From the NCBI GenBank assembly GCA_038883775.1, contig JAVZLM010000005.1, forward strand, positions 64,001 to 128,000: a DNA stretch of 64,000 nucleotides, written 5' to 3'. Shown piece after piece: positions 18,959 through 48,632 of this stretch; position 1 is the first letter of the stretch; each line of letters begins with the position of its first letter. The notes below the pieces were generated by a model, which saw nothing but the letters and a program-made list of their open reading frames with translations, was not told where the DNA came from and searched no databases. This DNA comes from Candidatus Bathyarchaeia archaeon (GTDB lineage Archaea > Thermoproteota > Bathyarchaeia > Bathyarchaeales > Bathycorpusculaceae). The translations under genes and the position numbers were made by a program.

Positions 18959-19975
18959 ATGCTAACTCACACGATTGAATGGCATGACGGAAAAGTACTA
19001 ACCATAGACCAGTCAAAGCTTCCATGGGAAACCATAATGCTTGAGATGAAAAGTTGTGATGATGTGGCTGAAGCCATAAAAACAATGAAAATCAGAGGCG
19101 CACCTCTTTTAGGCGCTGCTGCAGCCTTCGCATTGGCTTTAACAGCCTACCACTCGAAAAATAAAAGTAAAGAGGGGCTTCTTCAAGAATTGGAGAACAC
19201 TGCTGAAGTTTTGAGAAGTACAAGACCGACTGGTGTTAACCTTTTCTGGGCTGTAGACAGAATTTTAGCTAAGGCAAGGGATTTTTCAGGAAGCGCTGAG
19301 GCTTTAGCTGCTTTTGTTGTCGAGGAAGCGAAGAGAATAGCTGACGAAGATGCTGCGGCAAACCGCATGATTGGAAAGTTTGGCGCCGAACTCATCCGTG
19401 ACGGAGATGTTGTCCTAACCCATTGCAATGCTGGCGCTTTAGCAACTGTTGAGTATGGCACTGCTCTTGGAGTCATAAGGGCTGCTTGGGAACAAGGTAA
19501 AAAAATTAGGGTTATCGCCACAGAAACGCGTCCAAAATTGCAAGGGGCAAGGTTAACAACTTATGAGCTTAAGCGGGAGGGAATTCCGGTTACTTTGATT
19601 ACTGATAACATGGTTGGTTATGTCATGTTTAAGCGAATAGTTAGTAAGGTGATTGTTGGTGCTGACAGAATAGTTCAAGATGCAGTCATAAACAAGATTG
19701 GAACTTTCACAGTGGCTGTTTTAGCCAAAGAGCATCGTATACCCTTCTATGTGGCGGCTCCAAAATCCACCTTTGATTTAAAGCATAAGTCTGCAGACGT
19801 CATTATTGAAGAGCGGAACCCAGAAGAAGTAACCCATGTAGGTTCGCTGCGTATTGCCGCTGAAAGTGTGGACGCTTTGAATCCAGCATTTGACATAACT
19901 CCACTTAAATATGTGACAGCAATAATCTGCGAAAGCGGGATTCTATATAAGAAGGACTTTGATAAGTTTAAATGA
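18959..19975 (+). CDS. mtnA: Methylthioribose-1-phosphate isomerase (eIF-2B family)
   Basis: IRGAP, TRPTGVNL, THCNAGALAT, ETRP.LQGARLT, NKIGT, NPAFDIT. Confidence 0.92.
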   Translation: MLTHTIEWHDGKVLTIDQSKLPWETIMLEMKSCDDVAEAIKTMKIRGAPLLGAAAAFALALTAYHSKNKSKEGLLQELENTAEVLRSTRPTGVNLFWAVDRILAKARDFSGSAEALAAFVVEEAKRIADEDAAANRMIGKFGAELIRDGDVVLTHCNAGALATVEYGTALGVIRAAWEQGKKIRVIATETRPKLQGARLTTYELKREGIPVTLITDNMVGYVMFKRIVSKVIVGADRIVQDAVINKIGTFTVAVLAKEHRIPFYVAAPKSTFDLKHKSADVIIEERNPEEVTHVGSLRIAAESVDALNPAFDITPLKYVTAIICESGILYKKDFDKFK

Positions 19976-30009: not shown

Positions 30010-30144
30010 GGATTTATTGTCAAGGCATAAACTCAACTGATTATCTTAAATGTGCATAGTAGTTTAGTGTAATTTTGGACAAAACTATTATTTATGTCGC
30101 TTCTTTTAAAAGTGCAACCTTATCTATGTTATATGAGAGGGGTT

Positions 30145-31227
30145 ATGTTGCGCAGAGAATTTACTTATGCTAAGGCAGGTGTTAATAGAAGGATAAGATT
30201 CAAGTCCAAGAAGGCTCTGCAGATTTTGAAGGAAACTTATAGGTTTAGTTATTATGGTGAGGTTGTTGAGCTTCCTTTTGGGAACATTTTTCCTATAGGA
30301 AATGGCTGTCTTTTGGATTTGGTTATTGAGGGTGTGGGTACTAAGGTTCTTGTTGCGCAGTTGGCTGAAAAATTTGATACTATAGGGGTTGATGGTGTTG
30401 CAATGGCTGTTAATGATGTTATTAGGTCTGGGGCTAAACCTTTAGCGGTTGCGGATAATATTCATGTTCAAGTTTCTGATCCGAAGCTGATGAGGGATTT
30501 GTTGAAGGGAATAGCAAAAGGGGCTGTTGAGGCTGGATGTGTTGTGCCCAGTGGGGAAATTGGTGATGTTGCTGAGGTAGTGAAGGGGTTGGTGGAGGGC
30601 AAGGGGTTTGACTTGGTTGTAGCAGCTATTGGAATGGTTTCTGATGAAAAAATTATTTATGGAAAAGACGTAAAAGCTGGCAATGTTATTGTCGGTTTGA
30701 GAAGTTCTGGAATTCACAGTAATGGTGTTTCTTTGGCAAGGAAAGTTCTTTTCAAGCGTTGGGGTGGAAAATATGAGCCTTACGACGTTCCAGATGGATT
30801 AGAAAGGGAAGTCGTTTATGAGGTTTTGGAGCCTACTAGGGTGTATGTGAAGCCTTTGCTCGAGGTTGCAGAAGAGATTAGGATTAAGGCTGCAGTGCAC
30901 ATAACTGGCGATGCGTATTTAAAATTTGATAGGTTGACAAGGTTTTCTAAGGGTATAGGTTTTGAATTTGACAGTTTTAAGCCGCAGCCCATTTTTGAGT
31001 TAATTCAGAAAACCGCTTCAGAATTAGGTGGAAAACTAACGGATGAGGAGATGTTTAAGACTTTTAATATGGGATGGGGTTTTGCAGTGATAGTTGACAG
31101 AAAGGACGTAGACAGAGCAGTAGACGCTTTAGAGAGGAATGGGGTTCAGGCTGAACCAATAGGGCATGTAACGGATTACAAAGGAATAAGGATTCTATAT
31201 AAGGATAGGAAAATTATTTTGAAATGA
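30145..31227 (+). CDS. purM: AIR synthetase
   Basis: TYAKAGV, EGVGTK, AVNDV, SSGIHSNG, HITG, TFNMGWG. Confidence 0.94.
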   Translation: MLRREFTYAKAGVNRRIRFKSKKALQILKETYRFSYYGEVVELPFGNIFPIGNGCLLDLVIEGVGTKVLVAQLAEKFDTIGVDGVAMAVNDVIRSGAKPLAVADNIHVQVSDPKLMRDLLKGIAKGAVEAGCVVPSGEIGDVAEVVKGLVEGKGFDLVVAAIGMVSDEKIIYGKDVKAGNVIVGLRSSGIHSNGVSLARKVLFKRWGGKYEPYDVPDGLEREVVYEVLEPTRVYVKPLLEVAEEIRIKAAVHITGDAYLKFDRLTRFSKGIGFEFDSFKPQPIFELIQKTASELGGKLTDEEMFKTFNMGWGFAVIVDRKDVDRAVDALERNGVQAEPIGHVTDYKGIRILYKDRKIILK

Positions 31228-31281
31228 TTTTGCTTCTTGCTGATAAAAGCGTTTAAATCTTTTAAAACTCAAACTTAGCGT

Positions 31282-31533
31282 ATGAAATACCGCTTAAAGA
31301 TTGAAGTAAAATTGAAACCCGGACACAGTGACCCAGAAGGGGAAACCACGGCACATTTGCTGAAGGAGCTTGGTTATAAAGTTGAAACTGTGAATGTTAG
31401 TAAGGTTTACTATGTGATTCTTGAAACTGAATCCAAGGAAGAGGCTAAAGCGAAGGCTGATGAGATGTGTAGGAGGCTTTTGGCTAATCCAACTAAGGAT
31501 GATTATGTGATAGTGGTTGAGGAAGAAAGATGA
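31282..31533 (+). CDS. purS: FGAM synthase subunit PurS
   Basis: DPEGET, LLANP. Confidence 0.95.
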   Translation: MKYRLKIEVKLKPGHSDPEGETTAHLLKELGYKVETVNVSKVYYVILETESKEEAKAKADEMCRRLLANPTKDDYVIVVEEER

Positions 31534-33911
31534 ATGTAAGCCTTTACACTCACAGAAAAACTCCGTTTTCGCATTTTGAAGTGAACGTTCTTGAGGCTTC
31601 TGAACAGCAACTTTTGGAAATAAGCAGCGAACTTGGCATAGGCTTAAGTTTGCAAGAAATGAAGAGTGTTCAAGAGTATTTTAGGCGGAAGGGGCGAAAC
31701 CCCACAGATGTGGAACTTCAAACTATTGGGCAAACGTGGTCTGAGCATTGTTTTCACAAAACTTTCAAGGGTAAAATAAAATTTGATGGGAAAGAGATTG
31801 AAAGCCTTTTCAGAACTTACATAGTAAAGGCAACTAATGAAATTAAGCCAAAATGGTGCTTTTCCATTTTTGAGGATAACGCGGGTATAATCCGTTTTGA
31901 CAAGGGTTATGGAGTGGCTGTTAAGGTTGAAACTCATAATCATCCATCTGCTGTGGAGCCTTTTGGGGGTGCTGCCACTGGAGTTGGTGGAGTGATTCGG
32001 GATGTGTTGGGGGTTTGGGCTGACCCGATAGCGTGTATGGATGTTTTGGGTTTTGGTCCGTTAGATTTTGATTATGAAAGGCTTCCGCCCGGCGTTAAAC
32101 ATCCAAAGTATGTTTTCATGGGGGTTGTTGCTGGCATAGGAAGTTATGGCAATAATATGGGTATTCCAACTGTTAACGGCGCCATATACTTTGATGAAAA
32201 CTATGTGGGGAATGTGGTTGTTTATTGTGGATGTGTTGGATTGCTTCCATTGAAAAAGTTTAGGAGAAACGCTAAGCCAAATGACGTTATAGTTTTGGCT
32301 GGAGGGAGAACCGGTCGGGATGGCATTCACGGCGTAACCTTTGCATCAGCCGTATTAACAGAAAAGTCAGAAGAGGTTTCGAGACCAGCAGTTCAAATTG
32401 CAAATCCTATTGAAGAGGAAAAGCTGAAAAGGGCTATCATTAGAGTTCGAGATTTGGAGTTGGCTTCAGCAATAACGGATTTGGGTGGAGGAGGCTTATC
32501 ATCGGCTGTTGGCGAAACAGCAAAGCGGTTTGGTTGCGGCGCTTTTGTTGAGTTGGATAAAGTTCCATTAAAGTATTCTGGTTTGGCGCCTTGGGAAATT
32601 TACGTTTCCGAATCCCAAGAGAGGATGCTTTTGGCTGTGCCTCCTGAAAATTTGGAGAAAGTTTTGGAAGTTTTTAAGGGCGAGGATGTGGAGGCTAATG
32701 CTATTGGAAAATATACGGCGGATGAAGTTTTAAGAATTTATTATGAAGGCGAAAAAGTTGCTGAAATAGATATTTCATTCCTTTTCGAACCACCCAGGGT
32801 CATAAGAACCGCCCATTATAAGCCAAAAATTTTTGAGGAACCATCCTTTCAAGAACCAGGAAACTTGACTGAAACGCTTATGCAACTTTTGTCATCGCCC
32901 AACATTGCAAGTAAGGAAAGCGTAATACGCACTTATGACCATGAGGTGAAAGGAAACACTTTGCTTAAGCCCTTGCATGGCGAGTTTGCTGGACCTAACG
33001 ATGCTGCTGTTCTTAAGCCATTGGAGGATTCGTGGAAAGGCTTAGCCATCTCATGTGGGATGAATCCAAATTATGGGAGGATTGATGTTTATTGGATGGC
33101 TGCCTCAGCCATAGACGAGGCTATAAGGAACAATGTGGCTGTTGGCGGCAGAAGAATTGCCTTGCTTGACAATTTCACTTGGGGCGACCCTGAAAAGCCA
33201 GAAATTCTTGGCAGTCTTGTCAGGGCTTGTGAGGCGTGTTATGATTTTGCAACTGCCTTTAAGGCGCCGTTCATTTCTGGAAAGGACAGCCTCTATAATG
33301 AGTCGCCGCTTGGAACGGTTACGCCAACGCTTTTAATAACGGCTTTAGGCATCGTTCCCGATGTTCGTTTGGTTGTTTCTATAGATGTTAAGGATGCTGG
33401 CGACTTAATCTACATTGTTGGGCAAACCTATAAAGAGTTGGGCGGTTCGGAATATTATAGGCTTAAGGGTTTTGTTGGAAATACTGTGCCAAAAGTGCGG
33501 GCAAAACAAGCCAAGAAAACTTTTAGGGCAATTACTAAAGCTGTGGATTTGGGTTTAGTTAAGGCTTGCCATGATTTATCAGAAGGCGGTTTAGGCGTGG
33601 CGGCGGCGGAAATGGCTTTTGCTGGTGGATATGGAATGGAATTACATTTGCAGAAGGTTCCAAGAGAAAATTTGAATCGTGATGATTTCATTTTGTTTTC
33701 TGAGTCTAACAGCCGCTTTTTGGTGGAAGTTTCGCAAAAGGCTAAGGAAGAGTTTGAAGCATTGCTTAGAGGCGTAGTGTATGCTGAAATAGGAAAGGTC
33801 ACAAAAGTTCCAAGGTTATGCGTTTACGGACTAAGCGATAAAGTTGTTGTGGAGGCTTCGTTGAATGATTTGTTGGCAAGTTGGAAAAGAACTCTAAGTA
33901 GCTGGGTTTAG
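31530..33911 (+). CDS. purL: FGAM synthase subunit PurL
   Basis: WSEHCFHK, KVETHNHPS, GRDGIHG, DLGGGG, SESQERM, HDLSEGG. Confidence 0.97.
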   Translation: MNVSLYTHRKTPFSHFEVNVLEASEQQLLEISSELGIGLSLQEMKSVQEYFRRKGRNPTDVELQTIGQTWSEHCFHKTFKGKIKFDGKEIESLFRTYIVKATNEIKPKWCFSIFEDNAGIIRFDKGYGVAVKVETHNHPSAVEPFGGAATGVGGVIRDVLGVWADPIACMDVLGFGPLDFDYERLPPGVKHPKYVFMGVVAGIGSYGNNMGIPTVNGAIYFDENYVGNVVVYCGCVGLLPLKKFRRNAKPNDVIVLAGGRTGRDGIHGVTFASAVLTEKSEEVSRPAVQIANPIEEEKLKRAIIRVRDLELASAITDLGGGGLSSAVGETAKRFGCGAFVELDKVPLKYSGLAPWEIYVSESQERMLLAVPPENLEKVLEVFKGEDVEANAIGKYTADEVLRIYYEGEKVAEIDISFLFEPPRVIRTAHYKPKIFEEPSFQEPGNLTETLMQLLSSPNIASKESVIRTYDHEVKGNTLLKPLHGEFAGPNDAAVLKPLEDSWKGLAISCGMNPNYGRIDVYWMAASAIDEAIRNNVAVGGRRIALLDNFTWGDPEKPEILGSLVRACEACYDFATAFKAPFISGKDSLYNESPLGTVTPTLLITALGIVPDVRLVVSIDVKDAGDLIYIVGQTYKELGGSEYYRLKGFVGNTVPKVRAKQAKKTFRAITKAVDLGLVKACHDLSEGGLGVAAAEMAFAGGYGMELHLQKVPRENLNRDDFILFSESNSRFLVEVSQKAKEEFEALLRGVVYAEIGKVTKVPRLCVYGLSDKVVVEASLNDLLASWKRTLSSWV

Positions 33912-33913
33912 AC

Positions 33914-34732
33914 ATGAAGCGGGAAGAGATTAAAGTCTGCGTTTTAAGGGTAGGCGGAACAAACTGCGATGCAGAAACAAAACGGGCTTTTGAAGAGTTA
34001 GGCGTTCAAGCAGAGGTCGTACATGCAAATGAGCTGGTTAAACGCAGAAACCTTTTGGAATATCATGTTCTGGTTTTTCCAGGGGGTTTCTCTTATGGGG
34101 ATTATGTGCGGGCTGGCGCCATATGGGCGAAGTGGATAATGGCAAAATTGGGCAAGGAGCTTAAAGCCTTCGTAGACGAAAACCGCTTAATCCTTGGTAT
34201 TTGTAATGGCTTTCAAGTGCTTGTTGAGGCTGGTTTTCTTCCGGGATTTGATGGAATAAGCCCATATCCAGAAGCGGTTTTGGCAACCAATTTTCCACCA
34301 GGATATAATTGCCGTTGGATTTACATTAAGCACGAAAATAAGGGAAAATGTGCATTTACTTGGAACATTCCACATGAAAAAGTTTTGCGGATTCCCGTTG
34401 CCCATTCAGAGGGCAGATTTATGTTTGCAAAAGAAAAGGAAAAAGAGTTTCTGGAAAGACTTTACGAAAATGACCAGCTGGTCTTTCGCTATTGTGATAA
34501 AAGTGGCGAATATGCTGATGGACGTTTTCCAACAAACCCAAACGGTTCTTTCCATGATATAGCTGGATTATGCAACCTAGAAGGGACTATTTTTGGTTTG
34601 ATGCCGCATCCAGAAAGAGCCTTTTATTGGTGGCAACAGCCAGACTGGACAAGACAAAAGCAAATGCCCCAATACGGCGATGGAAAACTAATTTTCGAAA
34701 GCTTAATTGAATATTTAACGAAGAAGTTTTAA
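33914..34732 (+). CDS. purQ: FGAM synthase glutaminase subunit PurQ
   Basis: GTNCD, PGGFSYGD, GICNGFQ, MPHPER. Confidence 0.97.
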   Translation: MKREEIKVCVLRVGGTNCDAETKRAFEELGVQAEVVHANELVKRRNLLEYHVLVFPGGFSYGDYVRAGAIWAKWIMAKLGKELKAFVDENRLILGICNGFQVLVEAGFLPGFDGISPYPEAVLATNFPPGYNCRWIYIKHENKGKCAFTWNIPHEKVLRIPVAHSEGRFMFAKEKEKEFLERLYENDQLVFRYCDKSGEYADGRFPTNPNGSFHDIAGLCNLEGTIFGLMPHPERAFYWWQQPDWTRQKQMPQYGDGKLIFESLIEYLTKKF

Positions 34733-35629
34733 ATCCTCCACATGCGGAAGCCCTGTTCTGGCACCCATTTTCATTATACACTTTGAAGCTACAAAATTGC
34801 CAAGTCTTCCGCATTCATACAAACTTTTACCATTAATAAGACCATATAGGAAACCTGCACAGAAAGCATCACCAGCGCCCGTTGTATCTACAACTTTTAC
34901 GTTAAAGCGGTTTATTTGGTGACTTTCCCGTCCATCAGTAACATAACAGCCCTTATTGCCAAGTTTTACGGCAACTATTTTAACGCCTTTTTCAAGCAGA
35001 AACTTTGCGCCTTTCTTGTAATCTTTAACTTTGGTTAGGAGTTCAAGTTCCCTTTGATTTGGCATCAAAACAAAAGCACGCCTTATTATGGGCTCTAATG
35101 CAGCTAATCCTTTTCTGGCGTATAATTCGCCTGGGTCAAGGCTAACCTTAACATTTTCTGGCAACATCTCAACAAGCCTTAGCTGGGTTTGGAAGGATTT
35201 TTCTCCAACAAAAGAGGTTAAATGCAAAAATTGCGCGTTGAAGGCGTAATCCTTGTTTATTTCGTTAAACTCTATTGCGTCGTTCACACCTGGGTCCACA
35301 TATAATGCTCTTTCGCCATTTTGGTCTACGAAACCCATAACTGTCCCGCTTCTGCCATCTTTTGCGTAGATTATGCCCTTTGTGTCGACGCCTTCCCTTC
35401 GAAAATCTTCAATTAGCATTTTTCCTTCCCTATCGTTGGCTACCTTTCCTATAAAACCCACTTTGCAGCCGAGCCTTGCCAAGCCCACAGTGGTGTTTGC
35501 TGCCGAGCCTCCGCACCATTCTTCACAGTTTATAATGAAGCCTTCTTCTTCAGCCCCAGCTATTTTGTTCACTCTGAACAGCTTATCTACATTCAAGGCA
35601 CCGAATCCTACTACGTCAAAGGTGCTCAT
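34715..35629 (-). CDS. PfkB-family carbohydrate/nucleoside kinase
   Basis: [26 protein letters not shown]. Confidence 0.93.
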
Positions 35630-36537
35630 GAAAACAGCTCACGCAAATAAATCTTATAATCGCCAAGTTTTCCGTCATAATTTCCAGCGGAAACCTTCAC
35701 CACGCCATCCACTTCTAATACTGCTTCTATGCCAGCCCGCATAGCCCTTTTTATAGCTTCAAGCGAAACGCCATTAATCACGATTTCTGGAATATAATTG
35801 ACGCCTTCTGGAACCTTTGATTCCTTGTCTAACTTCTTTTTTAGGGATGGGCAGTAGGGATGGTTTGTTGTCGGTCCAATCCATGGAAAACTTGTTTCAG
35901 GCTTGGAACCAGCACTGCAAACGTCAAAAGGCGTTATTACACCATCAATTTTGTGTATTGCCTCTAAGGCTTTTTCTCCAGCCTTTTTTAGGGCTTCTTT
36001 TGTTTTGCACATGACCCAAAAGTTTGCACCCATAACGCCACGAGCATAGCCTAGATAGCGTTCGATAATGAAGTCTGGAACCATTATGGGAACAACGATA
36101 ACCTCACGCCCAAAGCGTTTTTCAACCCACTCATAGCCATCTCCACAGTGTCCAACACGCTCCATCATGTCAATTTTACCCTCAGCATTTGACGTTGCAT
36201 CAAAAACCGCCGTAAAAGGCTTAACAAGAATGTCTTGACGAATTCGATAAGAAAGCTCAACTTCAAACTTCTTTAGGGAATCTGAAAAGGGCTTTTTAGG
36301 GTCTATTCCACCCCAAAACTGGAGCAAAGCACCTTCACGCTTGTCTGGAGTTTCCCTTTCGCTTAACCATTTTTCTATTCCACCTTCAACTCTACCAATG
36401 ACTATGGACGGCGTTGCCGTGGCATCTTCAGCAGCCCTTCGCAATGTTTCTCCATCATCAGCCGTAACAATTATTCTGGAGAAGATTCCCTCGAAAGCCT
36501 CGGCGTAAGTGTCTTCTACAAGTTCTTTACCAATCAA
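35626..36537 (-). CDS. ftr: Formylmethanofuran--H4MPT formyltransferase (Ftr) family protein
   Basis: [32 protein letters not shown]; divergent from canonical Ftr and located in a purine operon. Confidence 0.88.
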
Positions 36538-36569
36538 CTTTTAATCTCCTAAAGCGGTCGTCTAGCGGA

Positions 36570-37547
36570 TTATTTTATTTTGGCGATTTCAGTTATTAAA
36601 TCTTCAACTCTAATATACGCCAAAGATAACTGGAAACGGGCTTGTACCAGAGGCGTTTGATAAATATGATAAAGTGTGTTGTTAACGATTAGGTTTGTGG
36701 AGCCTGATGGCAGTTCGCTGTAGTTTTCGTCTTGGAAAAAGTTCTTTTTTGCAATATCCCAGTATTTGAGGTCGCCTGAAGAGTATAGGTCATAGCCTGT
36801 TCCATTCCATATTCCTAGCATCATGTACCATTTTGAATCCAAATAGAACAGTGTTGGGTTTTCAAGGATTCCAGTAACAGCTATTTTTGTGTAATTCCAT
36901 TGCATTCCAAGGCTTTTGGCAGTTGCCAAGTGCACTCCATATTTTGCGGCTGATATCAGCATGTAATAGGTGTCTTCCAATTTCAGTATGTAAGGGTCCC
37001 AGCCTAGATTCGGTGCGAGGGGTTCTGGCATATCTTCCACTGTTAAATAGCCATGGTCAGTGAAAGTTGAGGGGTTTTTAATGTCTATTCCAACAGCTAA
37101 TCCAAGTCTTGAAAAGTTAATGTCTTTTTCAACGATGTTTTTCCAGTCGCTATAGTAAAGGTAGAATTTTCCATCGTCTGGGTTGTATATGCAGTAAGGC
37201 GCTATTTTCCCATCCATTTGTATGGGCGTGAAGCCAACAAAATTGTAGGTATGCAAATCCCTGGTCCTTATGACGCCGGTAAGCCATCTGCCGTCTGTTT
37301 TATTAACTGACAATACAATGTAATAGAAGCCTTCGTTATCTCTGAAAGCTGTGTGGTTTGGGTACCGCACAAACTCTGGGTCTTTCACGCTGTGCATGTT
37401 CGGTATGTTTATGGTTATGGCGCCACAGTAAACCCACTTTGTTGGCTGTTTTCTAATTATTAGGTAAAATGCTGTGAGAGTCGCTGCGAGAGCAATGATT
37501 ATGATGGCTGCCACAATAATCCATTCACGTTTACCCGACGAGACCAA
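36570..37547 (-). CDS. Membrane-anchored beta-propeller glycoside hydrolase-like protein (GH43/32-like clan)
   Basis: N-terminal TM; blade motifs KDPEF, IAPYC, WDPYI, ENPTL. Confidence 0.6.
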   Translation of the reverse strand: MVSSGKREWIIVAAIIIIALAATLTAFYLIIRKQPTKWVYCGAITINIPNMHSVKDPEFVRYPNHTAFRDNEGFYYIVLSVNKTDGRWLTGVIRTRDLHTYNFVGFTPIQMDGKIAPYCIYNPDDGKFYLYYSDWKNIVEKDINFSRLGLAVGIDIKNPSTFTDHGYLTVEDMPEPLAPNLGWDPYILKLEDTYYMLISAAKYGVHLATAKSLGMQWNYTKIAVTGILENPTLFYLDSKWYMMLGIWNGTGYDLYSSGDLKYWDIAKKNFFQDENYSELPSGSTNLIVNNTLYHIYQTPLVQARFQLSLAYIRVEDLITEIAKIK

Positions 37548-37550
37548 CTT

Positions 37551-38633
37551 TTATCCAAGCCTTCCTATGGCCTCGCCTCTTACCGTTTTACGAAAGGTTG
37601 TGCTTTCCCTTATCAGCCTTTCCATATTATCAGCTTTCACAATCTCAACTGAGGGCAATTTGCCACCATGCATGTTGAAAAACATGGTTTTGAGTTTGGC
37701 GTTTACATCGGCGCTTCCAAGCGTGGAAGTACTCCAATTTTCCACAAGCTCAATAACTCCTCTTTTGCCGTATTTGCAGAAAACCTCCGCCAGCACCGCA
37801 GTTACAAGTGCATTGGCAGATATGACGGCTATTTCCGCCTCTTTTACAGCATATTCGTTGCCGTTGAAGGATATGGTTAAGCCCCCAGCATGGCGAACTG
37901 TTTTGAAGGCTTCCATGTCCGTTATGCTGTCGCCAACATAAATAACATCCGCCAGTTCTGCACTAACTTTTTTAGCTGCATCTTTTACTGCTTCGGCTTT
38001 TTCGCTTCCTCCAACTGGATTGACTTCAGAGAAAATTTTGCCAATCTCCATTTTAGCGATAACTTCCCAGAAAATTTCGTCTAGCCGACCAATTAGTTCT
38101 TGGTCTCTTTTAGAAAAGTCGCTTAGAGCTTTTGCATCGGGAGGAATCTCGATTAAAGGCATCTTAACAATTTCCTCTGCCAATTCTTTCAGTTCGCTTC
38201 TTTCCTTCTCCGTTATGGAGTATTTGTCGAGGCATAGCCTTGTGGAGTAGGTGTTTTCGTATGGAAAATTCAGGGCTTGACATAAGGCTTCTATGTAATG
38301 CTGATAGCTCGTGCTAACAATAAAGGCATTGGTTATATTTCTTATATAAGACAGCATGTCCTTCACATTGGCAATTAAAAGTAGGCTCTTGGCAGAAAAA
38401 GTTCGCATTTTAGCGTCGGTAACATCATAAGCCTTTAAGAAGGGCAAAATAAGCTTTAAGGTGTCTCCAGCCTTATAGTTTGGTCTTTTTAGGATTTCTG
38501 CCAAAACATCATCATATTTGCTTATAACCGTGAAGAGTTTGCCTCCGTTTGGAACATAGTGAAATGTTATTTCGAAGGCATTATCATTTTTTGAGATTGG
38601 CCCTTCACAGTCTGATATGAAAACTCTTTTCAC
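37551..38633 (-). CDS. HAD-superfamily hydrolase (EhaR/COG4030-like)
   Basis: DCEGPISKNDNAFE, IVSTSY, K, YVGDSITD, FNGN. Confidence 0.85.
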   Translation of the reverse strand: MKRVFISDCEGPISKNDNAFEITFHYVPNGGKLFTVISKYDDVLAEILKRPNYKAGDTLKLILPFLKAYDVTDAKMRTFSAKSLLLIANVKDMLSYIRNITNAFIVSTSYQHYIEALCQALNFPYENTYSTRLCLDKYSITEKERSELKELAEEIVKMPLIEIPPDAKALSDFSKRDQELIGRLDEIFWEVIAKMEIGKIFSEVNPVGGSEKAEAVKDAAKKVSAELADVIYVGDSITDMEAFKTVRHAGGLTISFNGNEYAVKEAEIAVISANALVTAVLAEVFCKYGKRGVIELVENWSTSTLGSADVNAKLKTMFFNMHGGKLPSVEIVKADNMERLIRESTTFRKTVRGEAIGRLG

Positions 38634-40036
38634 TTTCGAAGCCTCAACTTCTCCATATGCCTAACGCTTTTTCCTATATGCTTTTTAGAGGCTATGTCTT
38701 TTCTATGCCACAAAGCTCCGCCTTTAATGGCTTTTATGCCTTCCAAAGAAATTTTTCTAGCAGTTTCTATGTCGTCGCCTATGCCCACAACGCCCACGGC
38801 TCTTGATTTAAGGGCGTAAGTTTCGTTGTTGCGGAATTCCATGGAGGCGGGATAGATGCGGATTTTTTCGCCATGCTTTTTGGATAGTTCGTAAGCCTTT
38901 GTTAGGTCGACTGGTGTGCCAATTTCATTTTTGTCGACAAGTTTTGGAAAAGCGTCTATGTATCCGCCGTAGTTTGGCGGAACCTTGTAGGTGACAACAG
39001 TTGCAGCATTTTCTAATTCAATCTTTGTCAAATTTCCTTCCAAAATTTTGAAGCACACGTCCACAAAATCATCTTTTAAAACCGGTAGAATGTTGATTAT
39101 TTCTGGGTCGCCTGGTCTGCTGTTGTTTTCAAGAATTTTCGGTTCCTTGCCCGTGTGCATAAAAGCCACATAGAACGGAATACCTCTTAGGCTGTCGCCA
39201 TCTTTAACCTCCCACTTTTCAAAAATTCGCCTAACAATTTCAACTTCCTTAGCCCTATCAGCATGAGTCATAAAAGGCAAAACATCGCCAACATCCTTAT
39301 AAGAACCCATACCGCCAGTGTTAGGACCCTTGTCATCGTCGAAGGCTCGCTTATAATCCCTCGTTTCTGGCAACGGCACCAAGTGTTTGCCGTCACAGAA
39401 GGCTTGAAAACTTGATTCTTCTCCCTCAATTTTCTCTTCAATTATTACTGCACCATGCTGAAAATTTGCCATAAAATGCTCAAACAATTGTTCTCGCGTG
39501 GTAAAGTGGTCTCCCCATACGCCCACGCCTTTTCCAGCTGCTGGTTGGTCTGGTTTAACCACAGCCCTATTTTCAAGCTCGTCCAACCATTCGTAAACAG
39601 CTTTTTTCACTTCTCGGGTTTTGTAATTTTTTGGGTTGAAAATTTTGAAGCGAGGGTTTACTTCTGGCGCAATTTTTTGGAATAGTAGGCGCTGCTGCAC
39701 TTTGCTTGCTTCTATGGCATATTCCTTTTTTGGGCAGATGATGGGTATGCCAGTGTGCTTTTCTACAAGGTCGCGGACGCCATCAATTATGGGTTTTTCT
39801 GGTCCAACAATGCCAAAGTCAATTTCGTCCCTATTGTTTTCTGCGAATTTGCAAATTTCCTCCACGTTTAAGTCTGGAATAACCATGTGCTTTGCTGCCT
39901 TTTTGACGTTAAAGGGATTGCGTTGTTTATCAACAACAAAAACCTTCACCTCATAATTTGTGCTTCGTGTGAAAGCGTCTATCATGGCAGATTCTCTTGC
40001 ACCGTAAGAAACAACGAGGATGCCAACTTTCTCCAT
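38630..40036 (-). CDS. purD: Phosphoribosylamine--glycine ligase
   Basis: GARE, VGPE, AAGKGV, DYKRA.DDD.GPNTGGMGSY, RPGDPE. Confidence 0.95.
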   Translation of the reverse strand: MEKVGILVVSYGARESAMIDAFTRSTNYEVKVFVVDKQRNPFNVKKAAKHMVIPDLNVEEICKFAENNRDEIDFGIVGPEKPIIDGVRDLVEKHTGIPIICPKKEYAIEASKVQQRLLFQKIAPEVNPRFKIFNPKNYKTREVKKAVYEWLDELENRAVVKPDQPAAGKGVGVWGDHFTTREQLFEHFMANFQHGAVIIEEKIEGEESSFQAFCDGKHLVPLPETRDYKRAFDDDKGPNTGGMGSYKDVGDVLPFMTHADRAKEVEIVRRIFEKWEVKDGDSLRGIPFYVAFMHTGKEPKILENNSRPGDPEIINILPVLKDDFVDVCFKILEGNLTKIELENAATVVTYKVPPNYGGYIDAFPKLVDKNEIGTPVDLTKAYELSKKHGEKIRIYPASMEFRNNETYALKSRAVGVVGIGDDIETARKISLEGIKAIKGGALWHRKDIASKKHIGKSVRHMEKLRLRK

Positions 40037-40092
40037 TTCATGCTCCCGCTAGTTTAACGAAAATGAGTTTGAAGCCTATTTTATTTTTGGCT

Positions 40093-41580
40093 TTAGGCTT
40101 TTTGGATGGCTTCAGATATCTCGTAAAGCCTTCCCTGTTCCTCGTAGCCTTCAAGGAATTTCTTCTTCATCTCATCCGCAATTTTTTGCGCTAATGGTGT
40201 GGGATATTTGCCCGTTACACATGCCAAACAAAGTTGGTCACGACGGAACCCTGTGGCTTTTACGAAACCTTCTATTGACTGGTAGCAGACGGCATCAGCG
40301 CCTATTATTTTTGCTATTTCTTCCGCCGTATGCCTTGAGCCTATTAATTGCCCATAAGTTGCCATGTCTATTCCATAGAAGCATGGTCCAATGATGCGGG
40401 GAAAAGTTACAAACATGTAAACTTTCTTTGCGCCCATTCTGCGAAGTTTCTCTATAACAATTTTTGTTGTGTCGCCGCGCACTATGCTATCTTCTGTCAC
40501 TATGACACGTTTTCCTTTAACTTTAGAGGCTATAATGTTAATTTTTCTGTCTATGGTTGCATAACGCTCCCTATTTAGCAGTATAAAGGCTCTTTCTGTT
40601 ACAAAACGATGCCTCCGTGAAGCCCTCTCCCACTTTAGCCCAGACTCTTCGTGAACTCCGAAGGCTGCATCATCGCCCGTTTCTGGAATGGATATGACTA
40701 TGTCTGCGTTTTTGGCTATTTCTGGATTTTCTCTAACAAGGTTTCTTCCAAACTCTTCTCGAACTTCGTAAACATATTTGTTATCAAAGCATGAGTCGGG
40801 TCTAGCGAAATATGCAAATTCGAAAGCGCAGAAAGCCCTGCATCCGCCATTCACCAATTTTTCTCTTTCAAGTCCATTTTTTGAAACTGTTACGAGTTCG
40901 CCTGGCTCAATTTCAAAAGCTTTCTTAAAGCCGTTTATGTCTAAACCTACGGTTTCTGAAGAGAAAGCGTAAGTTGTCTTGTCTTCGCTTTGTCCAGCGC
41001 ATAATGGTCTAATGCCATTTTGGTCTTTGAAGGCGAAGAACTCACCGTTTTTTGTGATGCAAGCTACAGAAAAGGCGCCTTCAATTTCTTCCATGCACGT
41101 TTTTACTGCTGATGTAACATCCTTATTCTTCACCAACTCAATTAAAAGCTTGTGAGAAATGAGGTCTGCATCGCATTCGTAAGAAAATTTTGGAAAATAT
41201 TTGCTTATTTCCTTTTTAAGTTGAAATATGTTAACAACATTACCATTAAAAGAAACAGCCACAGCAAACCCATTTTTTAAAGCGGTAACTGGTTGAGTGC
41301 CCTTTATAAGGGATTTTTCGTCGCATTTTCCAGAAGTCGTATATCTAACGTTTGCTATGCCCACACTTCCAGGTAAACGTCCAAACCATTCTTGGATGGC
41401 GCTTGTCTTTATTTTTGGTATTAAGTCTAAGCTTCGGTGAACATGAAATTTTCCATGATCAAATGTTAAGAAGCCATGAGATTGGTGTCCTCTGTGGTTT
41501 TGAGCGCGCATTCCCCAGTAGATGTATGGGAATATGGGCTGTTCTTCAAAGTTTATTGCTCCAAATACGCCACAACCCAT
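40093..41580 (-). CDS. purF: Amidophosphoribosyltransferase
   Basis: N-terminal CGV, HRG, RYTTSG, CAFEFAYFARPDS, DSIVRG, CFYGID, CLAC. Confidence 0.95.
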   Translation of the reverse strand: MGCGVFGAINFEEQPIFPYIYWGMRAQNHRGHQSHGFLTFDHGKFHVHRSLDLIPKIKTSAIQEWFGRLPGSVGIANVRYTTSGKCDEKSLIKGTQPVTALKNGFAVAVSFNGNVVNIFQLKKEISKYFPKFSYECDADLISHKLLIELVKNKDVTSAVKTCMEEIEGAFSVACITKNGEFFAFKDQNGIRPLCAGQSEDKTTYAFSSETVGLDINGFKKAFEIEPGELVTVSKNGLEREKLVNGGCRAFCAFEFAYFARPDSCFDNKYVYEVREEFGRNLVRENPEIAKNADIVISIPETGDDAAFGVHEESGLKWERASRRHRFVTERAFILLNRERYATIDRKINIIASKVKGKRVIVTEDSIVRGDTTKIVIEKLRRMGAKKVYMFVTFPRIIGPCFYGIDMATYGQLIGSRHTAEEIAKIIGADAVCYQSIEGFVKATGFRRDQLCLACVTGKYPTPLAQKIADEMKKKFLEGYEEQGRLYEISEAIQKA

Positions 41581-41692
41581 TTTGGCCTTTCGCCCCTTGT
41601 TGCGAATAAAGAAGTTGGTGTTTATCAGTTTTTATGACATTTTTAACTAAAAAATATGTTAAATTTTACAGAACGAATGCCAACTGCCGCTT

Positions 41693-42127
41693 TTATTTTA
41701 CCGTGCTTGAGGTTATTGTTAGCTCTGCTCCTGAAATGACGTGAATCCACCAGCTCAGCGCAGTAAAAGAGTCATTGTAATAGACTATTAAGCGTGCTAT
41801 GGAGTTTATTGGAGCATCGCATGGAACGGTGCCATTCCATGTTAAAGTTTTTGTCTTGCATGGTTTAAGGGTTAAAGTTTGCGGCGTTCCACTCCAAGTC
41901 CAAGTTTCGCCTTCAAAGGCTATGTTAACAGACCATGTTCCTTCGCATTTTCCAGTATTCTTGAAAACTATTTTCACGGTGAAAGCCTCACATGGCGTTT
42001 TGTCAACAACGCCGCCGTCTTCACATGCAAAACAAAGCCATTGCGTTTCTTCTGAACGTATAGTTGAAAGGCTAAGTGTAAGAAGCAAAGCAGCTATAGC
42101 AAAAGATAGAAGATAATATCTTTTCAT
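41693..42127 (-). CDS. Secreted Ig-like beta-sandwich protein
   Basis: Signal peptide MKRYYLLSFAIAALL; KNTG..EG.W.V pattern. Confidence 0.6.
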   Translation of the reverse strand: MKRYYLLSFAIAALLLTLSLSTIRSEETQWLCFACEDGGVVDKTPCEAFTVKIVFKNTGKCEGTWSVNIAFEGETWTWSGTPQTLTLKPCKTKTLTWNGTVPCDAPINSIARLIVYYNDSFTALSWWIHVISGAELTITSSTVK

Positions 42128-42268
42128 GTTTCTCTCCTTTCCTCCACAATAATAATTTGCAAGCTCCTCTTTATCCATTCTGTAATATACCTCTATAAAA
42201 TAAAACAAGAAAAATCCTAGAGAGGGTAGGCGCTATTGCAATGGAAAAGCGCCAAAAATATGAAGAAT

Positions 42269-43597
42269 TTATGGAGTTACTCTAAACTTGTCTCGTGGAT
42301 AAAGCGTCACTTCCCTAATGTTCCTTTTACCCGTCAACATCATCGTCAACCGTTCCAAACCAATGGCCCAACCAGCATGCGGAGGCATCCCAAAATCAAA
42401 AGCCTGCAGATGAAATTTGAAGGCTTCGGGGTTTAAGCCCTTCTCTTGCAGACGTTTTATTAAAAGCTCTTTTGTTGCAATTCTTGTTCCGCCAGAAACA
42501 AGCTCAAGCCAACGCCACATTAAATCGAAGCCTTCGCAAATTTCTGGTTTGTCATCCCGCGGTTTTATGTAAAAAGCTTTGGAATGAGTAGGCCAGTCGG
42601 TTATGAAATAGAAGTAGGGATGAATTTTTCCAAGAGTTCTCAGGGCTGGGGTTGGAATGTCTTCTCCCCATGGAACATTTACGCCTTCCCTTTCCAATTC
42701 TTTGAGAACCTCATCGTAAGTTAACCGTTTAAACGGAACCTTAGGCACATCAATTTTGTGTTTTAGCAAACCTAACTCTTTTTGGCATTTTTCATTCACA
42801 ACTTTGCAAACATGCTGCATTAACCTTTCAAGCAACTGCATCACATCTTCAGCGTCCGCAAAGGCTTGCTCAATATCGATGGAAACAAACTCGCTGGTGT
42901 GAAAGCGTGTATGCGATTCTTCAGCCCTAAAAAAGGGACCCACCTCGAAAACTTTTTCGAGGCTCATGACAAGCTGCTCTTTATACAATTGTGGACTTTG
43001 GGCGAGAAAGGCTTTCCTTCCAAAATAGTCTACGGGAAATAGTGCTGCTCCGCCTTCAGTGGCGGAAGCAATAATCCTTGGCGTGTGCACTTCTATGAAG
43101 CCTCTTTCGAAGAGGAAGTCTCGAATGGCTTCTACGGCTGTGTGTTGAATTTTGAAAACTGCTATGTTTTTGTCTTGGCAGAGGTCTAAGGCTCTTGCAT
43201 CCAACCGCGTTTCCAAACTTGCAGGAGTTTTTCCTGTAATGTCTATGGGCAGTTGGGGAGCCGCTGTGCCAAAAATTTTAATTTCCTTCGGTATGACTTC
43301 GACCCCTCTGGGGGTTACTTCTGTTTTCTTCACTGTTCCCTTCACGCCGATACTATACCTTTTCTGCAAAACATCAGACCTCGACAAAACTTCGTTTGGA
43401 ACTTTCTTTCGTGGTATAGTGATTTGGATGGTGCCTTCTCTGTCTTGCAATATTATAAATCGAATTCCACCTAAATCTCTGATTTCTTGAATCCAACCGA
43501 AAAGCGTAACTTCTGAACCATCCATTTCAGGCTTTACGTTAACCGAATAATGGGTTCTACGCCAATCACCAATGGAATCCAATTTCATATACTGCAC
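42269..43597 (-). CDS. aspS: Aspartate--tRNA ligase (archaeal type)
   Basis: RDLGG, ATEGGA, LAQSPQLYK, FRAE, GMPPHAG.AIGLER. Confidence 0.96.
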   Translation of the reverse strand: MQYMKLDSIGDWRRTHYSVNVKPEMDGSEVTLFGWIQEIRDLGGIRFIILQDREGTIQITIPRKKVPNEVLSRSDVLQKRYSIGVKGTVKKTEVTPRGVEVIPKEIKIFGTAAPQLPIDITGKTPASLETRLDARALDLCQDKNIAVFKIQHTAVEAIRDFLFERGFIEVHTPRIIASATEGGAALFPVDYFGRKAFLAQSPQLYKEQLVMSLEKVFEVGPFFRAEESHTRFHTSEFVSIDIEQAFADAEDVMQLLERLMQHVCKVVNEKCQKELGLLKHKIDVPKVPFKRLTYDEVLKELEREGVNVPWGEDIPTPALRTLGKIHPYFYFITDWPTHSKAFYIKPRDDKPEICEGFDLMWRWLELVSGGTRIATKELLIKRLQEKGLNPEAFKFHLQAFDFGMPPHAGWAIGLERLTMMLTGKRNIREVTLYPRDKFRVTP

Positions 43598-47627: not shown

Positions 47628-48632
47628 GTGGTAGCGAGCCTCAACTCCAATATGCCCAGTCATATTCAGAGTGATAAATGTCTTTCGTTAGAGTTTTTGT
47701 TTGACAATGTGGATTTTTTGTTTGTTTGGAAGATTGTTATGAAAAAGTATCATTTGCGTGGGAGACCTCATGACCCTATTGCTATGTTTAAGGCTTTGCT
47801 TTTGAAGGAGATGAGGCAGTTTTCTTCTCGTCGGAAATTGGTGGAGTTTCTTAGGCGTGATTCTTTTTGGTTGAGAAAGTGTGGTTTTGAGCAGCCGCCG
47901 AGCCATAATAGTTTTTCTGATTTTGTTGATAGGGTTGGGGCAGATGCTACTGAGCAGCTTTTCTATCATTTGGTCAATGAAATAAGGAAACTTAAGAAGA
48001 TTGGGGAAATCGTCTCAATAGACTCCACACCTTTGAAAGCATATGCACATTTTTGGAAGAATAGGGAATGCTCTGACCCTGATGCCAAGTGGGGATATAG
48101 TCCTACGGCGGAGTGGGTTTTCGGTTATAAAGTTCACTTAGCCGTTGATGCAGATTCAGAACTTCCTTTGGCATTTATTGTTACACCAGCCAATATTTAT
48201 GATAGTGTAGAATATCCTGAACTTTTAAACAAACTGATTCAGATGGGAATACAGCCAAAAATAGTTCTTGCGGACGCAGGATACGACTCCAAGAAAAACT
48301 ATCTGCTAACTCTAAAATGTGGAGCTACTCCAATCATTGCACTTAACAAGCGAAAAATGAAGAGAAGGAAAACAAGGGATTTCGAACGTATCTTGCCGAT
48401 AAAACGAAAAAGTGAACGTTGGAAGTCTCTTTACAGAAAGAGAAGCAGTGCTGAAAGAGTCATTTCACGGCTGAAAGAAGAGTTAGCTTTGAGAGACGTA
48501 AAAGTGAGAGGATTGAACAATGTGCGAATTCACGTAGCATTCTCTTTAATAGCAATGTTAACCGTAGCCCTCGTTGCCTTAAAAACCGGAAATGGACACA
48601 AAGCGACAAGTGTAAACTCATTTAGATTCTAA
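47628..48632 (+). CDS. DDE transposase (IS4/IS5/IS1182-like superfamily)
   Basis: SIDST, GYKVHL, LADAGYDS, Y-x2-R-x3-E-x6-K (YRKRSSAERVISRLK); RBS GGAGGAG. Confidence 0.93.
   Translation: MVASLNSNMPSHIQSDKCLSLEFLFDNVDFLFVWKIVMKKYHLRGRPHDPIAMFKALLLKEMRQFSSRRKLVEFLRRDSFWLRKCGFEQPPSHNSFSDFVDRVGADATEQLFYHLVNEIRKLKKIGEIVSIDSTPLKAYAHFWKNRECSDPDAKWGYSPTAEWVFGYKVHLAVDADSELPLAFIVTPANIYDSVEYPELLNKLIQMGIQPKIVLADAGYDSKKNYLLTLKCGATPIIALNKRKMKRRKTRDFERILPIKRKSERWKSLYRKRSSAERVISRLKEELALRDVKVRGLNNVRIHVAFSLIAMLTVALVALKTGNGHKATSVNSFRF

Follow-up and report, generated by a model that had tools for sequence, protein, structure and literature searches.

The window analysed in this study is a stretch of 64,000 nucleotides from a metagenome-assembled genome (MAG) of a Candidatus Bathyarchaeia archaeon (contig JAVZLM010000005.1). 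It carries a purine biosynthesis locus in which a paralog of Ftr, the formylmethanofuran:tetrahydromethanopterin (H4MPT) formyltransferase, lies in one row of genes with purF and purD. This paralog, called Ftr2 in the following, is our candidate for step 3 of the pathway, the formylation of glycinamide ribonucleotide (GAR) to its formyl derivative (FGAR), i.e., the reaction of the known GAR formyltransferases PurN and PurT. Labels beginning with G, C, L and f denote our genomes, contigs, loci and families, respectively.

A preliminary description, made from the sequence alone, had assigned purF, purD, purS/L/Q and purM to steps 1, 2, 4 and 5 and placed an Ftr homologue (35626-36537) in the purF-purD transcription unit. 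Family scans confirm these gene assignments, and the position of the Ftr homologue is compatible with the gene spacing. Three further genes of the unit, encoding a haloacid dehalogenase (HAD)-like protein, an unclassified protein of 325 amino acids (aa) and a PfkB-family kinase, had been missed, and the start given for the cluster, 30145, falls inside purM, whose longest open reading frame (ORF) begins at 30094. The locus consists of the following genes:

30094-31227, plus strand: purM (step 5); TIGR00878, 261 bits, over the cut-off
31282-31533, plus strand: purS (step 4 subunit); TIGR00302, 77 bits
31530-33911, plus strand: purL (step 4); TIGR01736, 699 bits
33914-34732, plus strand: purQ (step 4 glutaminase subunit); NF002252, 319 bits; convergent with the PfkB gene
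34715-35629, minus strand: PfkB-family (ribokinase-like) kinase, counterpart of EhaT; PfkB, 191 bits
35626-36537, minus strand: Ftr2 (EhaS-type Ftr paralog), candidate step 3 formyltransferase; Pfam FTR and FTR_C; NF002554, 346.3 bits
36570-37547, minus strand: unclassified ORF, 325 aa; GH43, 27.6 bits, below the cut-off of 32.2
37551-38633, minus strand: HAD-superfamily ORF, 360 aa, counterpart of EhaR; weak HAD matches
38630-40036, minus strand: purD, GAR synthetase (step 2), divergent type; GARS_N/A/C; TIGR00877, 276 bits, cut-off 288
40093-41580, minus strand: purF, amidophosphoribosyltransferase (step 1), divergent type; TIGR01134, 312.6 bits, cut-off 350

ORF calls and family scans thus delineate six close-packed minus-strand ORFs (34715-41580) with purF first, while purM, purS, purL and purQ (30094-34732) are located on the plus strand in opposite orientation. 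The intergenic gaps on the minus strand range from -4 to +56 bases, with an overlap of 4 bases each for purD/HAD-like and Ftr2/PfkB, a spacing that would fit a single transcription unit. In a promoter and terminator scan of 34000-42500, promoter-like sites were no commoner than in shuffled sequences; the consensus applied is bacterial and the host an archaeon. The 325-aa ORF between the HAD-like gene and Ftr2 has no NCBIfam match and no tblastn match in 80 related Ftr2 loci, and is shared, as judged by gene spacing, with G145 only. It appears to have entered the operon recently and stands outside the conserved module.

The Ftr2 paralog and its host genome

The MAG comprises 1.69 Mb in 28 contigs and is rated 91% complete and 5% contaminated; the nearest relatives of its proteins bear Bathyarchaeia names, and the sequencing runs matching it are hot-spring metagenomes. 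The absence of purN and purT, previously described for the window, is borne out genome-wide: PurN has zero matches across the whole assembly, and the top match to a PurT model reaches 36-37 bits only. This match, an uncharacterised ATP-grasp ORF on contig C25, was considered as PurT and rejected, as its best match is carbamoyl-phosphate-synthase-like (97 bits, versus 37 bits with the PurT model). The other members of the family, 15 genomes of which three are rated 100% complete, likewise gave no PurN or PurT match. Step 3 is therefore without a recognised enzyme in the genome of the window.

A canonical ftr gene, expected by the preliminary description to exist elsewhere, is located on contig C2 adjoining cofE and aRF1 (TIGR03119, 388.3 bits; 38% identity to the window copy), so that the window copy is not the sole ftr. 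Together with FwdA (818 bits), it demonstrates the one-carbon (C1) cofactor pathway in this genome. PurH1 was not found in the genome, and a PurP-family gene is present by Pfam, though divergent (139 bits on the NCBIfam PurP models). This sole PurP-family gene (G000:C8:26102-26866, L084 1201-2634) encodes 477 aa, about 100 residues more than a typical PurP ORF, and matches the model in two separate parts (model positions 1-130 and 135-188). The same 477-aa form was observed in G008, G072 and G082, while other relatives possess two ordinary PurP copies.

Ftr2 shows the full-length two-lobe architecture of the family (FTR, 148 bits, residues 6-151; FTR_C, 195 bits, residues 154-301). It passes the subfamily model NF002554 (cut-off 297 bits) and fails the equivalog model TIGR03119 (229.7 bits, cut-off 292.6). 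In a tree of representatives drawn from 1.8 billion proteins, it belongs to a clade of 11 rows apart from the main Ftr clade. In a second tree with named sequences added, the canonical Ftr clade (22 rows, support of 100 in the SH-like approximate likelihood ratio test, SH-aLRT) excludes the window copy, which instead falls within a clade of 28 rows (SH-aLRT 96) with sequences of Bathyarchaeia, Methanobrevibacter and Borrarchaeum. Its identity to the Methanobrevibacter copies is 54-57%, compared with 39-40% to the canonical Ftr of the same organisms. By these comparisons, the window paralog is assigned as an orthologue of the clade termed 'Ftr2' or EhaS.

The solved canonical Ftr proteins (1FTR/2FHJ/2FHK, 1M5S, 1M5H) share the FTR, FTR_C two-lobe fold and match the window Ftr2 over its full length with 174-180 bits. 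Ftr2 differs from them by an identity of only about 38-40%, a clade of its own, class-specific residues and its location in a purine operon. The class-specific residues were determined from 46 Ftr2 and 21 canonical sequences, a comparison in which Ftr2 also retains the core common to both classes, E251 among it. In the alignment with 1M5S, E251 of the window Ftr2 falls on the Glu of the 'YEIVING' motif of the solved enzymes; the catalytic Glu of the M. kandleri Ftr is numbered Glu245. Conservation of E251 reaches at least 90% in either class, and the residue does not vary among 16 Ftr2 sequences. According to our own residue count, it would be the counterpart of Glu252 of FhcD, for which the relevant passages of PMC6926001 report stabilisation of the oxyanion intermediate. 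Compared with canonical Ftr, Ftr2 has C131 in place of F, A209 in place of S, P222/T223 in place of A/S and E214 in place of G, as well as a deletion of two residues after F204; W75, W174, C177, C207 and H226 are conserved in Ftr2 only. This residue pattern suggests that Ftr2 is an active formyltransferase whose substrate site has changed. The pertinent section of PMC9012536 states that only Ftr1 versions have been characterised so far, and lists Ftr2 for ANME-1 (a group of anaerobic methanotrophic archaea), Archaeoglobales, M. kandleri and Methanothermobacter.

Some observations concern the spread of the paralog. In the tree with named sequences, the Ftr2 of Methanobrevibacter forms a long branch nested among the Bathyarchaeia sequences, and 12 genomes of our Halobacteriota sample (e.g., L106, G321:C1) carry an Ftr2 that is 70-77% identical to the window copy. 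Nesting and identity together suggest either an inter-phylum transfer of the gene or module or a long-branch artefact. Ftr2 was also observed in two entries labelled as relatives of ammonia oxidisers, L027 (titled Nitrosotalea) and L060 (titled Nitrososphaerota). The latter contains the whole Bathyarchaeia-type purF-purD-HAD-like-Ftr2-PfkB run with 62-70% identity; misbinning or mislabelling is the likely origin of both labels. In G155 (Candidatus Pyrohabitans, L004), a copy of the Ftr2 type (60% identity) was found and canonical Ftr was not.

Gene order and distribution relative to PurN and PurT

The position after purD is occupied by different step 3 candidates in different Bathyarchaeia lineages. 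PurN follows purD in G099, G083, G063, G040, G037, G058 and G052, and about 400 bases further on in G146; a PurN-like gene does so in G010, G002, G034, G028, G140, G071, G111 and G137, and PurT in G016, G073, G119 and G006. In the remaining Bathyarchaeia lineages, the same position is taken by a module of the HAD-like gene, Ftr2 and PfkB. PurN thus shares with Ftr2 the slot and, under our proposal, the reaction, but it has an unrelated fold (Formyl_trans_N) and uses 10-formyl-tetrahydrofolate as donor. purN is not expected in archaea with methanopterin-related C1 carriers only, as put in the section of PMC3261824 on this step. PurT, found in the slot in the Bathyarchaeia families f17 and f12, likewise performs the step free of folate, but by an ATP-grasp fold with free formate and ATP, and it never accompanies Ftr2 in our samples.

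The 80 related loci mentioned above were fetched with an Ftr2 alignment. Among these, purD, the HAD-like gene and Ftr2 occur in this order in 36, and the HAD-like gene, Ftr2 and PfkB in 47. The full run purF-purD-HAD-like-Ftr2-PfkB is present in 30 of the 80, in 23 of these with purQ and purL alongside. One of the 30 belongs to the Asgard archaeon Borrarchaeum (L077), with purL, purQ and purM downstream on the same strand. A different arrangement is given in G028 (L096, G028:C17, 5319-11066), where the order is purF, purD, PurN-like gene, HAD-like gene, PfkB. Judged from gene order, this is a formyltransferase swapped in place inside an otherwise retained operon. Divergent PurN-family genes (51-77 bits) in the place of Ftr2 with the partners retained were observed in G034:C8 and G140:C162 as well. 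For families f8 and f21, we considered that their divergent PurN-like proteins might use H4MPT, which would explain the retained HAD-like gene; this is unsupported, since the genomes concerned are without PurP and hence look folate-type.

Outside Bathyarchaeia, Methanobrevibacter and Borrarchaeum, the HAD-like gene lies 3-5 kb from Ftr2 in two loci, and no other widely conserved partner was found in the Ftr2 loci there. In the ANME-1-like loci L038 (2477-8861), L013 (1553-6528) and L007, genes for the HAD-like protein, FBPase_3, ATP-dependent phosphofructokinase (PFK) and a class-II-aldolase-like protein were observed just upstream of Ftr2. The context of Ftr2 in these loci is sugar-phosphate metabolism, not pur.

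The distribution of Ftr2 was studied in two samples of 151 genomes each. Related genomes are not independent samples, and the figures are therefore given as counts, without statistics. In the Bathyarchaeia sample, purD was found in 122 genomes, and the matches to the window Ftr2 are bimodal, with 52-84% identity in 57 genomes (some of them partial) and 36-44% for canonical Ftr. Among the genomes with both purD and Ftr2, 52 of 54 are without any PurN/PurT-type candidate, and PurN above the cut-off occurs in none of the 54. One genome taken at first for an Ftr2 plus PurT case, G001, was rejected as such because the ORF is PurK (466 bits), followed by PurE. Of the 68 genomes with purD but without Ftr2, 61 possess a step 3 candidate: PurN in 16, a PurT-like gene (225-303 bits) in 12, and in 33 no more than a PurN-family ORF of lower score, for which PurN nevertheless remains the top NCBIfam match. 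Nothing was found in the remaining seven, of which G042, G108 and G053 are 98%, 94% and 90% complete, respectively, and the other four 61-77%.

Switches are also seen within families. In f11, Ftr2 occurs in G011 and G035, PurT in eight relatives and PurN in one; in f21, Ftr2 is found in three genomes and a PurN-like gene in two. In three Bathyarchaeia genomes (G109, G067 and G081), Ftr2 is present and no purD match reaches an E-value of 1e-30. Fragments of purD lie at the ends of contigs in G109, one of them on the Ftr2 contig, and G067 consists of 300 contigs; G081 is taken up below. Conversely, G014 is the sole member of family f2 without purD, and it is also without Ftr2 and the HAD-like gene, i.e., a case of co-loss.

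The Halobacteriota sample yields a similar picture, with Ftr2 in 65 genomes, PurN in 71 and PurT (at least 233 bits) in 15. Ftr2 is present in 59 of the 67 genomes without PurN and PurT, compared with 6 of the 84 with either one. Ftr2 and PurT were found together in none of the 65 Halobacteriota and none of the 54 Bathyarchaeia genomes. All 101 sampled genomes of Methanobacteria carry Ftr2, and PurN and PurT are absent from the five tested among them, which were picked across the range of Ftr2 identity. The anticorrelation of this Ftr clade with purN and purT that the preliminary description had predicted is thus seen as complementarity in both large samples.

The second formylation of the pathway, that of 5-aminoimidazole-4-carboxamide ribonucleotide (AICAR), is covered by PurP: among the genomes with Ftr2, it occurs in 55 of 57 from Bathyarchaeia and, where PurN is lacking, in 54 of 59 from Halobacteriota. 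Step 3 is therefore the formylation left open. AICAR as acceptor of Ftr2 was rejected, given PurP in most Ftr2 genomes and a complementarity that is specific to PurN and PurT. The step 2 enzyme seems to co-vary with the type of step 3 enzyme, as far as model scores indicate: with TIGR00877, purD mostly scores 220-276 bits in Ftr2 genomes versus 303-505 in most PurN/PurT lineages. Exceptions are G031 (397 bits) and G087, with a second copy at 397. The lower-scoring class of purD (about 220-280 bits) was observed in some PurN-like lineages as well.

These counts bear on the possibility that Ftr2 takes part in the release of free formate from formyl-H4MPT or formyl-methanofuran, analogous to PurU or FhcD, and thereby feeds PurP and an unrecognised formate-dependent GAR enzyme. 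The idea is suggested by FhcD (6S6Y), an Ftr homologue in a multi-protein assembly that moves formyl groups between H4MPT and a furan cofactor and acts in formate generation of methylotrophs (PMC6926001, in the parts on this complex), and by the nearly constant presence of the formate-dependent PurP in Ftr2 genomes. A formate supplier should accompany the formate-dependent PurT, however, and the overlap is 0 of 65 and 0 of 54. FhcD matches the window Ftr2 with 99 bits only, serves formate production and is partnered by FhcABC rather than by HAD-like and PfkB proteins; the Ftr2 module includes no FhcA-like hydrolase. Since this explanation also leaves the step 3 gap as it stands, we consider it very improbable.

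Candidate reaction and competing explanations

We propose that Ftr2 probably supplies the formyl transfer of step 3, from either formyl-H4MPT or formyl-methanofuran. This would apply to archaea that use H4MPT and methanofuran and possess neither PurN nor PurT. The proposal relies on a distinct, conserved Ftr clade, its catalytic Glu, the operon slot, the complementary distribution, and the presence of Fwd and canonical Ftr. Ftr2 would place C8 of the purine ring on GAR, the acceptor being GAR itself or a close derivative. The donor would be N5-formyl-H4MPT, with the primary amine of GAR replacing the aminomethyl group of methanofuran in a reverse Ftr reaction, or alternatively formyl-methanofuran made by Fwd. 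The ATP-driven PurL step would pull the transfer. If Ftr2 is a GAR transformylase, it would represent a third, non-homologous kind, as only Ftr families match it and homology to PurN or PurT was not found.

Labelling studies can be reconciled with such a donor. C8 derives from C2 of acetate in M. stadtmanae and not in M. smithii, results which are called inconsistent in the purine section of PMC3261824. They would be consistent if the donor were a cofactor-bound formyl group, fed from serine in M. stadtmanae and from CO2 in M. smithii.

Several points weigh against the proposal. The basis is comparative genomics throughout, with related, non-independent genomes, and the genome of the window is a MAG of 91% completeness and 5% contamination. 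In Bathyarchaeia, G149 has Ftr2 plus one weak PurN-like ORF, and the 33 genomes counted as 'PurN-like only' depend on matches of 51-108 bits, below the cut-off. G081, a single contig of 2.0 Mb (86% complete), has no detectable purD (best match 37 bits); its HAD-like, Ftr2 and PfkB genes (C1:1527439-1529125; L094 8943-12715) adjoin purF and a purM-like gene. In Halobacteriota, 6 of 65 Ftr2 genomes also have PurN, four of them with a divergent Ftr2 (51-54% identity). Among genomes without Ftr2, the HAD-like/PfkB pair is present in 5 of 94 from Bathyarchaeia and in 13 of 86 from Halobacteriota, which implies a function of the module beyond a simple Ftr2 model. In Methanobacteria, the module is located at the end of the eha operon and not with pur genes, and EhaS/EhaT are read as hydrogenase subunits in the eha part of PMC3087415. 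Finally, N10-formyl-H4MPT is not believed to be a formyl donor according to the corresponding passage of PMC3261824, citing Maden.

The HAD-like gene accompanies Ftr2 in all 57 Bathyarchaeia genomes that carry the paralog and in 61 of the 65 from Halobacteriota. The protein is homologous to AF1437 of Archaeoglobus fulgidus (PDB 1Y8A, deposited as 'hypothetical protein'; E-value 2e-32, residues 4-292), and its clusters in a protein atlas are automatically named 'EhaR'. Across 16 diverse sequences, D8-x-E10-G-P, S107-T-S, K212 and G234-D-S-I-T-D239 are invariant. The close structural and feature neighbours in the atlas include mostly bacterial clusters (Thermodesulfobacteriota). To our knowledge, these bacteria are not expected to use H4MPT, and the function of the HAD-like protein is thus probably not tied to archaeal C1 cofactors. 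The PfkB protein has ribokinase as its top NCBIfam match (173 bits, cut-off 300), with ribose-1-phosphate kinases at 136-144 bits, and its nearest solved structures are ribokinases.

A complex of the HAD-like protein with the Ftr2 dimer was predicted with a score of 0.47, the best of three controls being 0.00, with contacts at least 89% consistent and a partner pLDDT (predicted local distance difference test) of at least 89. In this range of scores (0.60 or lower), 7 of 80 solved complexes and 2 of 110 mismatched pairs passed, the latter being both of the mismatched passes; the prediction lends weak support, and we make no claim of binding.

The pair of HAD-like and PfkB genes also persists where Ftr2 is missing. 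Carriers of the HAD-like gene without Ftr2 include all five Bathyarchaeia with a divergent PurN-like gene (51-77 bits) directly beside purD. In G309:C7 (L105 3675-6887), likewise without Ftr2, the PfkB/HAD-like pair is convergent with a true PurT (NF006766, 346 bits, cut-off 339). Canonical PurN, PurT and the f18-type PurN-like gene are not accompanied by the HAD-like gene in the Bathyarchaeia sample. To judge from these arrangements, the pair appears tied to this part of purine synthesis and not strictly to Ftr2. The preliminary description had considered the Ftr paralog alone as the GAR transformylase. Its genomic predictions hold, but the conserved HAD-like/Ftr2/PfkB module was not seen at that time, and the notion that Ftr alone replaces PurN may be incomplete, given that the two other genes persist beside a PurN-like gene and beside a true PurT.

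One way to assign a role to all three proteins, which we regard as improbable, is a three-enzyme, ATP-driven route for step 3, encoded in the order of its reactions. The HAD-like protein would strip the 5'-phosphate from GAR, Ftr2 would formylate the neutral glycinamide riboside from N5-formyl-H4MPT or formyl-methanofuran, and the ribokinase-like PfkB protein would re-phosphorylate the product to FGAR. Formyl transfer of this type is expected to be near equilibrium; the hydrolysis and the kinase step would render it irreversible at the cost of one ATP, which equals that of PurT. The phosphatase step in riboflavin synthesis constitutes a precedent.

In another explanation, the module would act in the supply of sugar phosphates or ribose, in the salvage of nucleosides or in a cofactor biosynthesis linked to purine synthesis, and the real GAR formyltransferase would be another, still unrecognised enzyme, e.g., a formate-using ATP-grasp protein. 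The persistence of the pair with the PurN-like gene in G028, with the true PurT in G309 and in 13 Halobacteriota genomes without Ftr2 would be understandable under this explanation. So would the neighbours of HAD-like and Ftr2 genes in the ANME-1-like loci, namely fructose-1,6-bisphosphate (FBP) aldolase/phosphatase, PFK and aldolase-like genes, and the best score of the PfkB protein as a ribokinase. The genome of the window also contains the ATP-grasp ORF on C25 and a gene of the formate-requiring PurP family. On the other hand, neither the complementarity of Ftr2 with PurN and PurT nor the exchange of Ftr2 for a PurN-like gene within one operon (G028) is explained in this way, and no candidate ATP-grasp protein with a matching distribution was found with the PurT model, the only one applied. 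We rate this explanation as unlikely, if slightly less so than the three-enzyme route.

The same three genes, in the same order, are known from the eha operon of Methanothermobacter and Methanobrevibacter as EhaR, EhaS and EhaT, the Methanobrevibacter copies having 35%, 55% and 44% identity to the window proteins. In Methanobrevibacter, the module is located after the small and large subunits of a [NiFe] hydrogenase and two polyferredoxins, at the end of the eha operon. The window module, in contrast, lies between purD and the divergent purMSLQ genes without hydrogenase genes nearby, and has the extra ORF between HAD-like gene and Ftr2. Among the loci compared, hydrogenase genes stand beside Ftr2 in the Methanobrevibacter locus only. 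Eha helps to replenish the formyl pool of methanogens (anaplerotic role). If, under the three-enzyme route, the module of Methanobacteria draws formyl groups from this pool, its place on the eha operon would be explained.

The eha linkage is also an argument for regarding Ftr2 as an ordinary formylmethanofuran:H4MPT isoenzyme or an Eha subunit that balances the pools of formyl-methanofuran and formyl-H4MPT for anabolism, its position among pur genes reflecting no more than co-regulation with C1 supply. Co-transcription of Ftr2 with eha in Methanothermobacter is described in the eha part of PMC3087415, where EhaS/EhaT are noted as annotated formyltransferase/ribokinase and these roles are judged unlikely because of the co-transcription. 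In addition, Ftr2 has kept the complete architecture of Ftr as well as the catalytic Glu, it scores above the cut-off of the subfamily and always occurs alongside the H4MPT pathway, and canonical Ftr is the second match in most genomes. Yet Ftr2 forms a separate clade with invariant residues of its own, and it resides in Bathyarchaeia and Asgard pur operons without adjoining hydrogenase genes. A redundant isoenzyme would give no reason for the complementarity with PurN/PurT or for the co-loss with purD in G014. An isoenzyme or Eha subunit is, in our estimation, no more probable than the three-enzyme route, and GAR formylation by Ftr2 remains our preferred assignment.

Relation to published work and surroundings of the locus

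The missing archaeal enzyme and the paralog have both been described before, the paralog since the genomes were annotated. In the curated survey of PMC3261824, the section on this step reports that a GAR formyltransferase was not found in Archaeoglobi, M. kandleri and four species given as 'Methanomicrobiales', which are Methanobacteriales by name and are so cited in PMC9012536. In its purine passage, the latter work describes ANME-1 as without PurN and PurT and restates the gap in 2022. The taxa with the gap and the taxa with Ftr2 overlap, and our sample counts are in agreement with both reports; in the relevant sections of the two papers, these facts are left unlinked. A systems study of Methanothermobacter from 2023 (PMC10579436) still takes the Eha subunits as equimolar hydrogenase components when normalising their abundances, and its pertinent text contains no statement on purine step 3. 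In open-access full texts, the scope of our literature search, a published link between Ftr2/EhaS and GAR formylation was not found. The gene family and the open question were accordingly known already; what appears new is their link, together with the three-gene module in the step 3 slot and the complementarity expressed in counts.

The archaeal gap at step 3, open since at least 2011, thereby becomes directly testable with Ftr2 and its two partner genes. Two puzzles, the missing archaeal GAR formyltransferase and the role of EhaS/EhaT, are joined, and one clonable candidate with two partners is named. Should the assignment hold, step 3 would have a third non-homologous solution, and a purine precursor would for the first time be seen to receive a formyl group, in biosynthesis, from the C1 cofactors of methanogenesis. 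Thousands of genes now labelled 'formylmethanofuran--H4MPT formyltransferase' would be given a corrected annotation, and the modelling of the carbon drain from methanogenesis and the Wood-Ljungdahl pathway would change for methanogens, methane oxidisers, Bathyarchaeia and Asgard archaea.

The surroundings of the locus were scanned for further H4MPT-pathway genes, of which the preliminary description had seen none nearby. This agrees with our scan, which took in most of the larger ORFs in the segment of the window from about 18 kb to about 54 kb: none of the 21 ORFs outside the cluster belongs to that pathway. Matches to other families (translation, tRNA synthetases, succinyl-CoA synthetase, transposase and others) were obtained for 17 of the 21, and the remaining four match none.

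The hot-spring runs provide contigs that cover the pur genes and Ftr2 as short pieces of related strains and have no bearing on transcription; two runs labelled metatranscriptomic carry the flag 'probably DNA'. In three of four hot-spring runs, the sequence depth is low over about 36759-37612, an observation that supports nothing further. A DDE transposase gene (DDE_Tnp_1) is located at 47628-48632 on the plus strand of the window, 6 kb off the cluster. On its other side, at a distance of 15 kb, the plus strand encodes an IF-2B-family protein (18959-19975), a family which includes ribose-1,5-bisphosphate and methylthioribose-1-phosphate isomerases.

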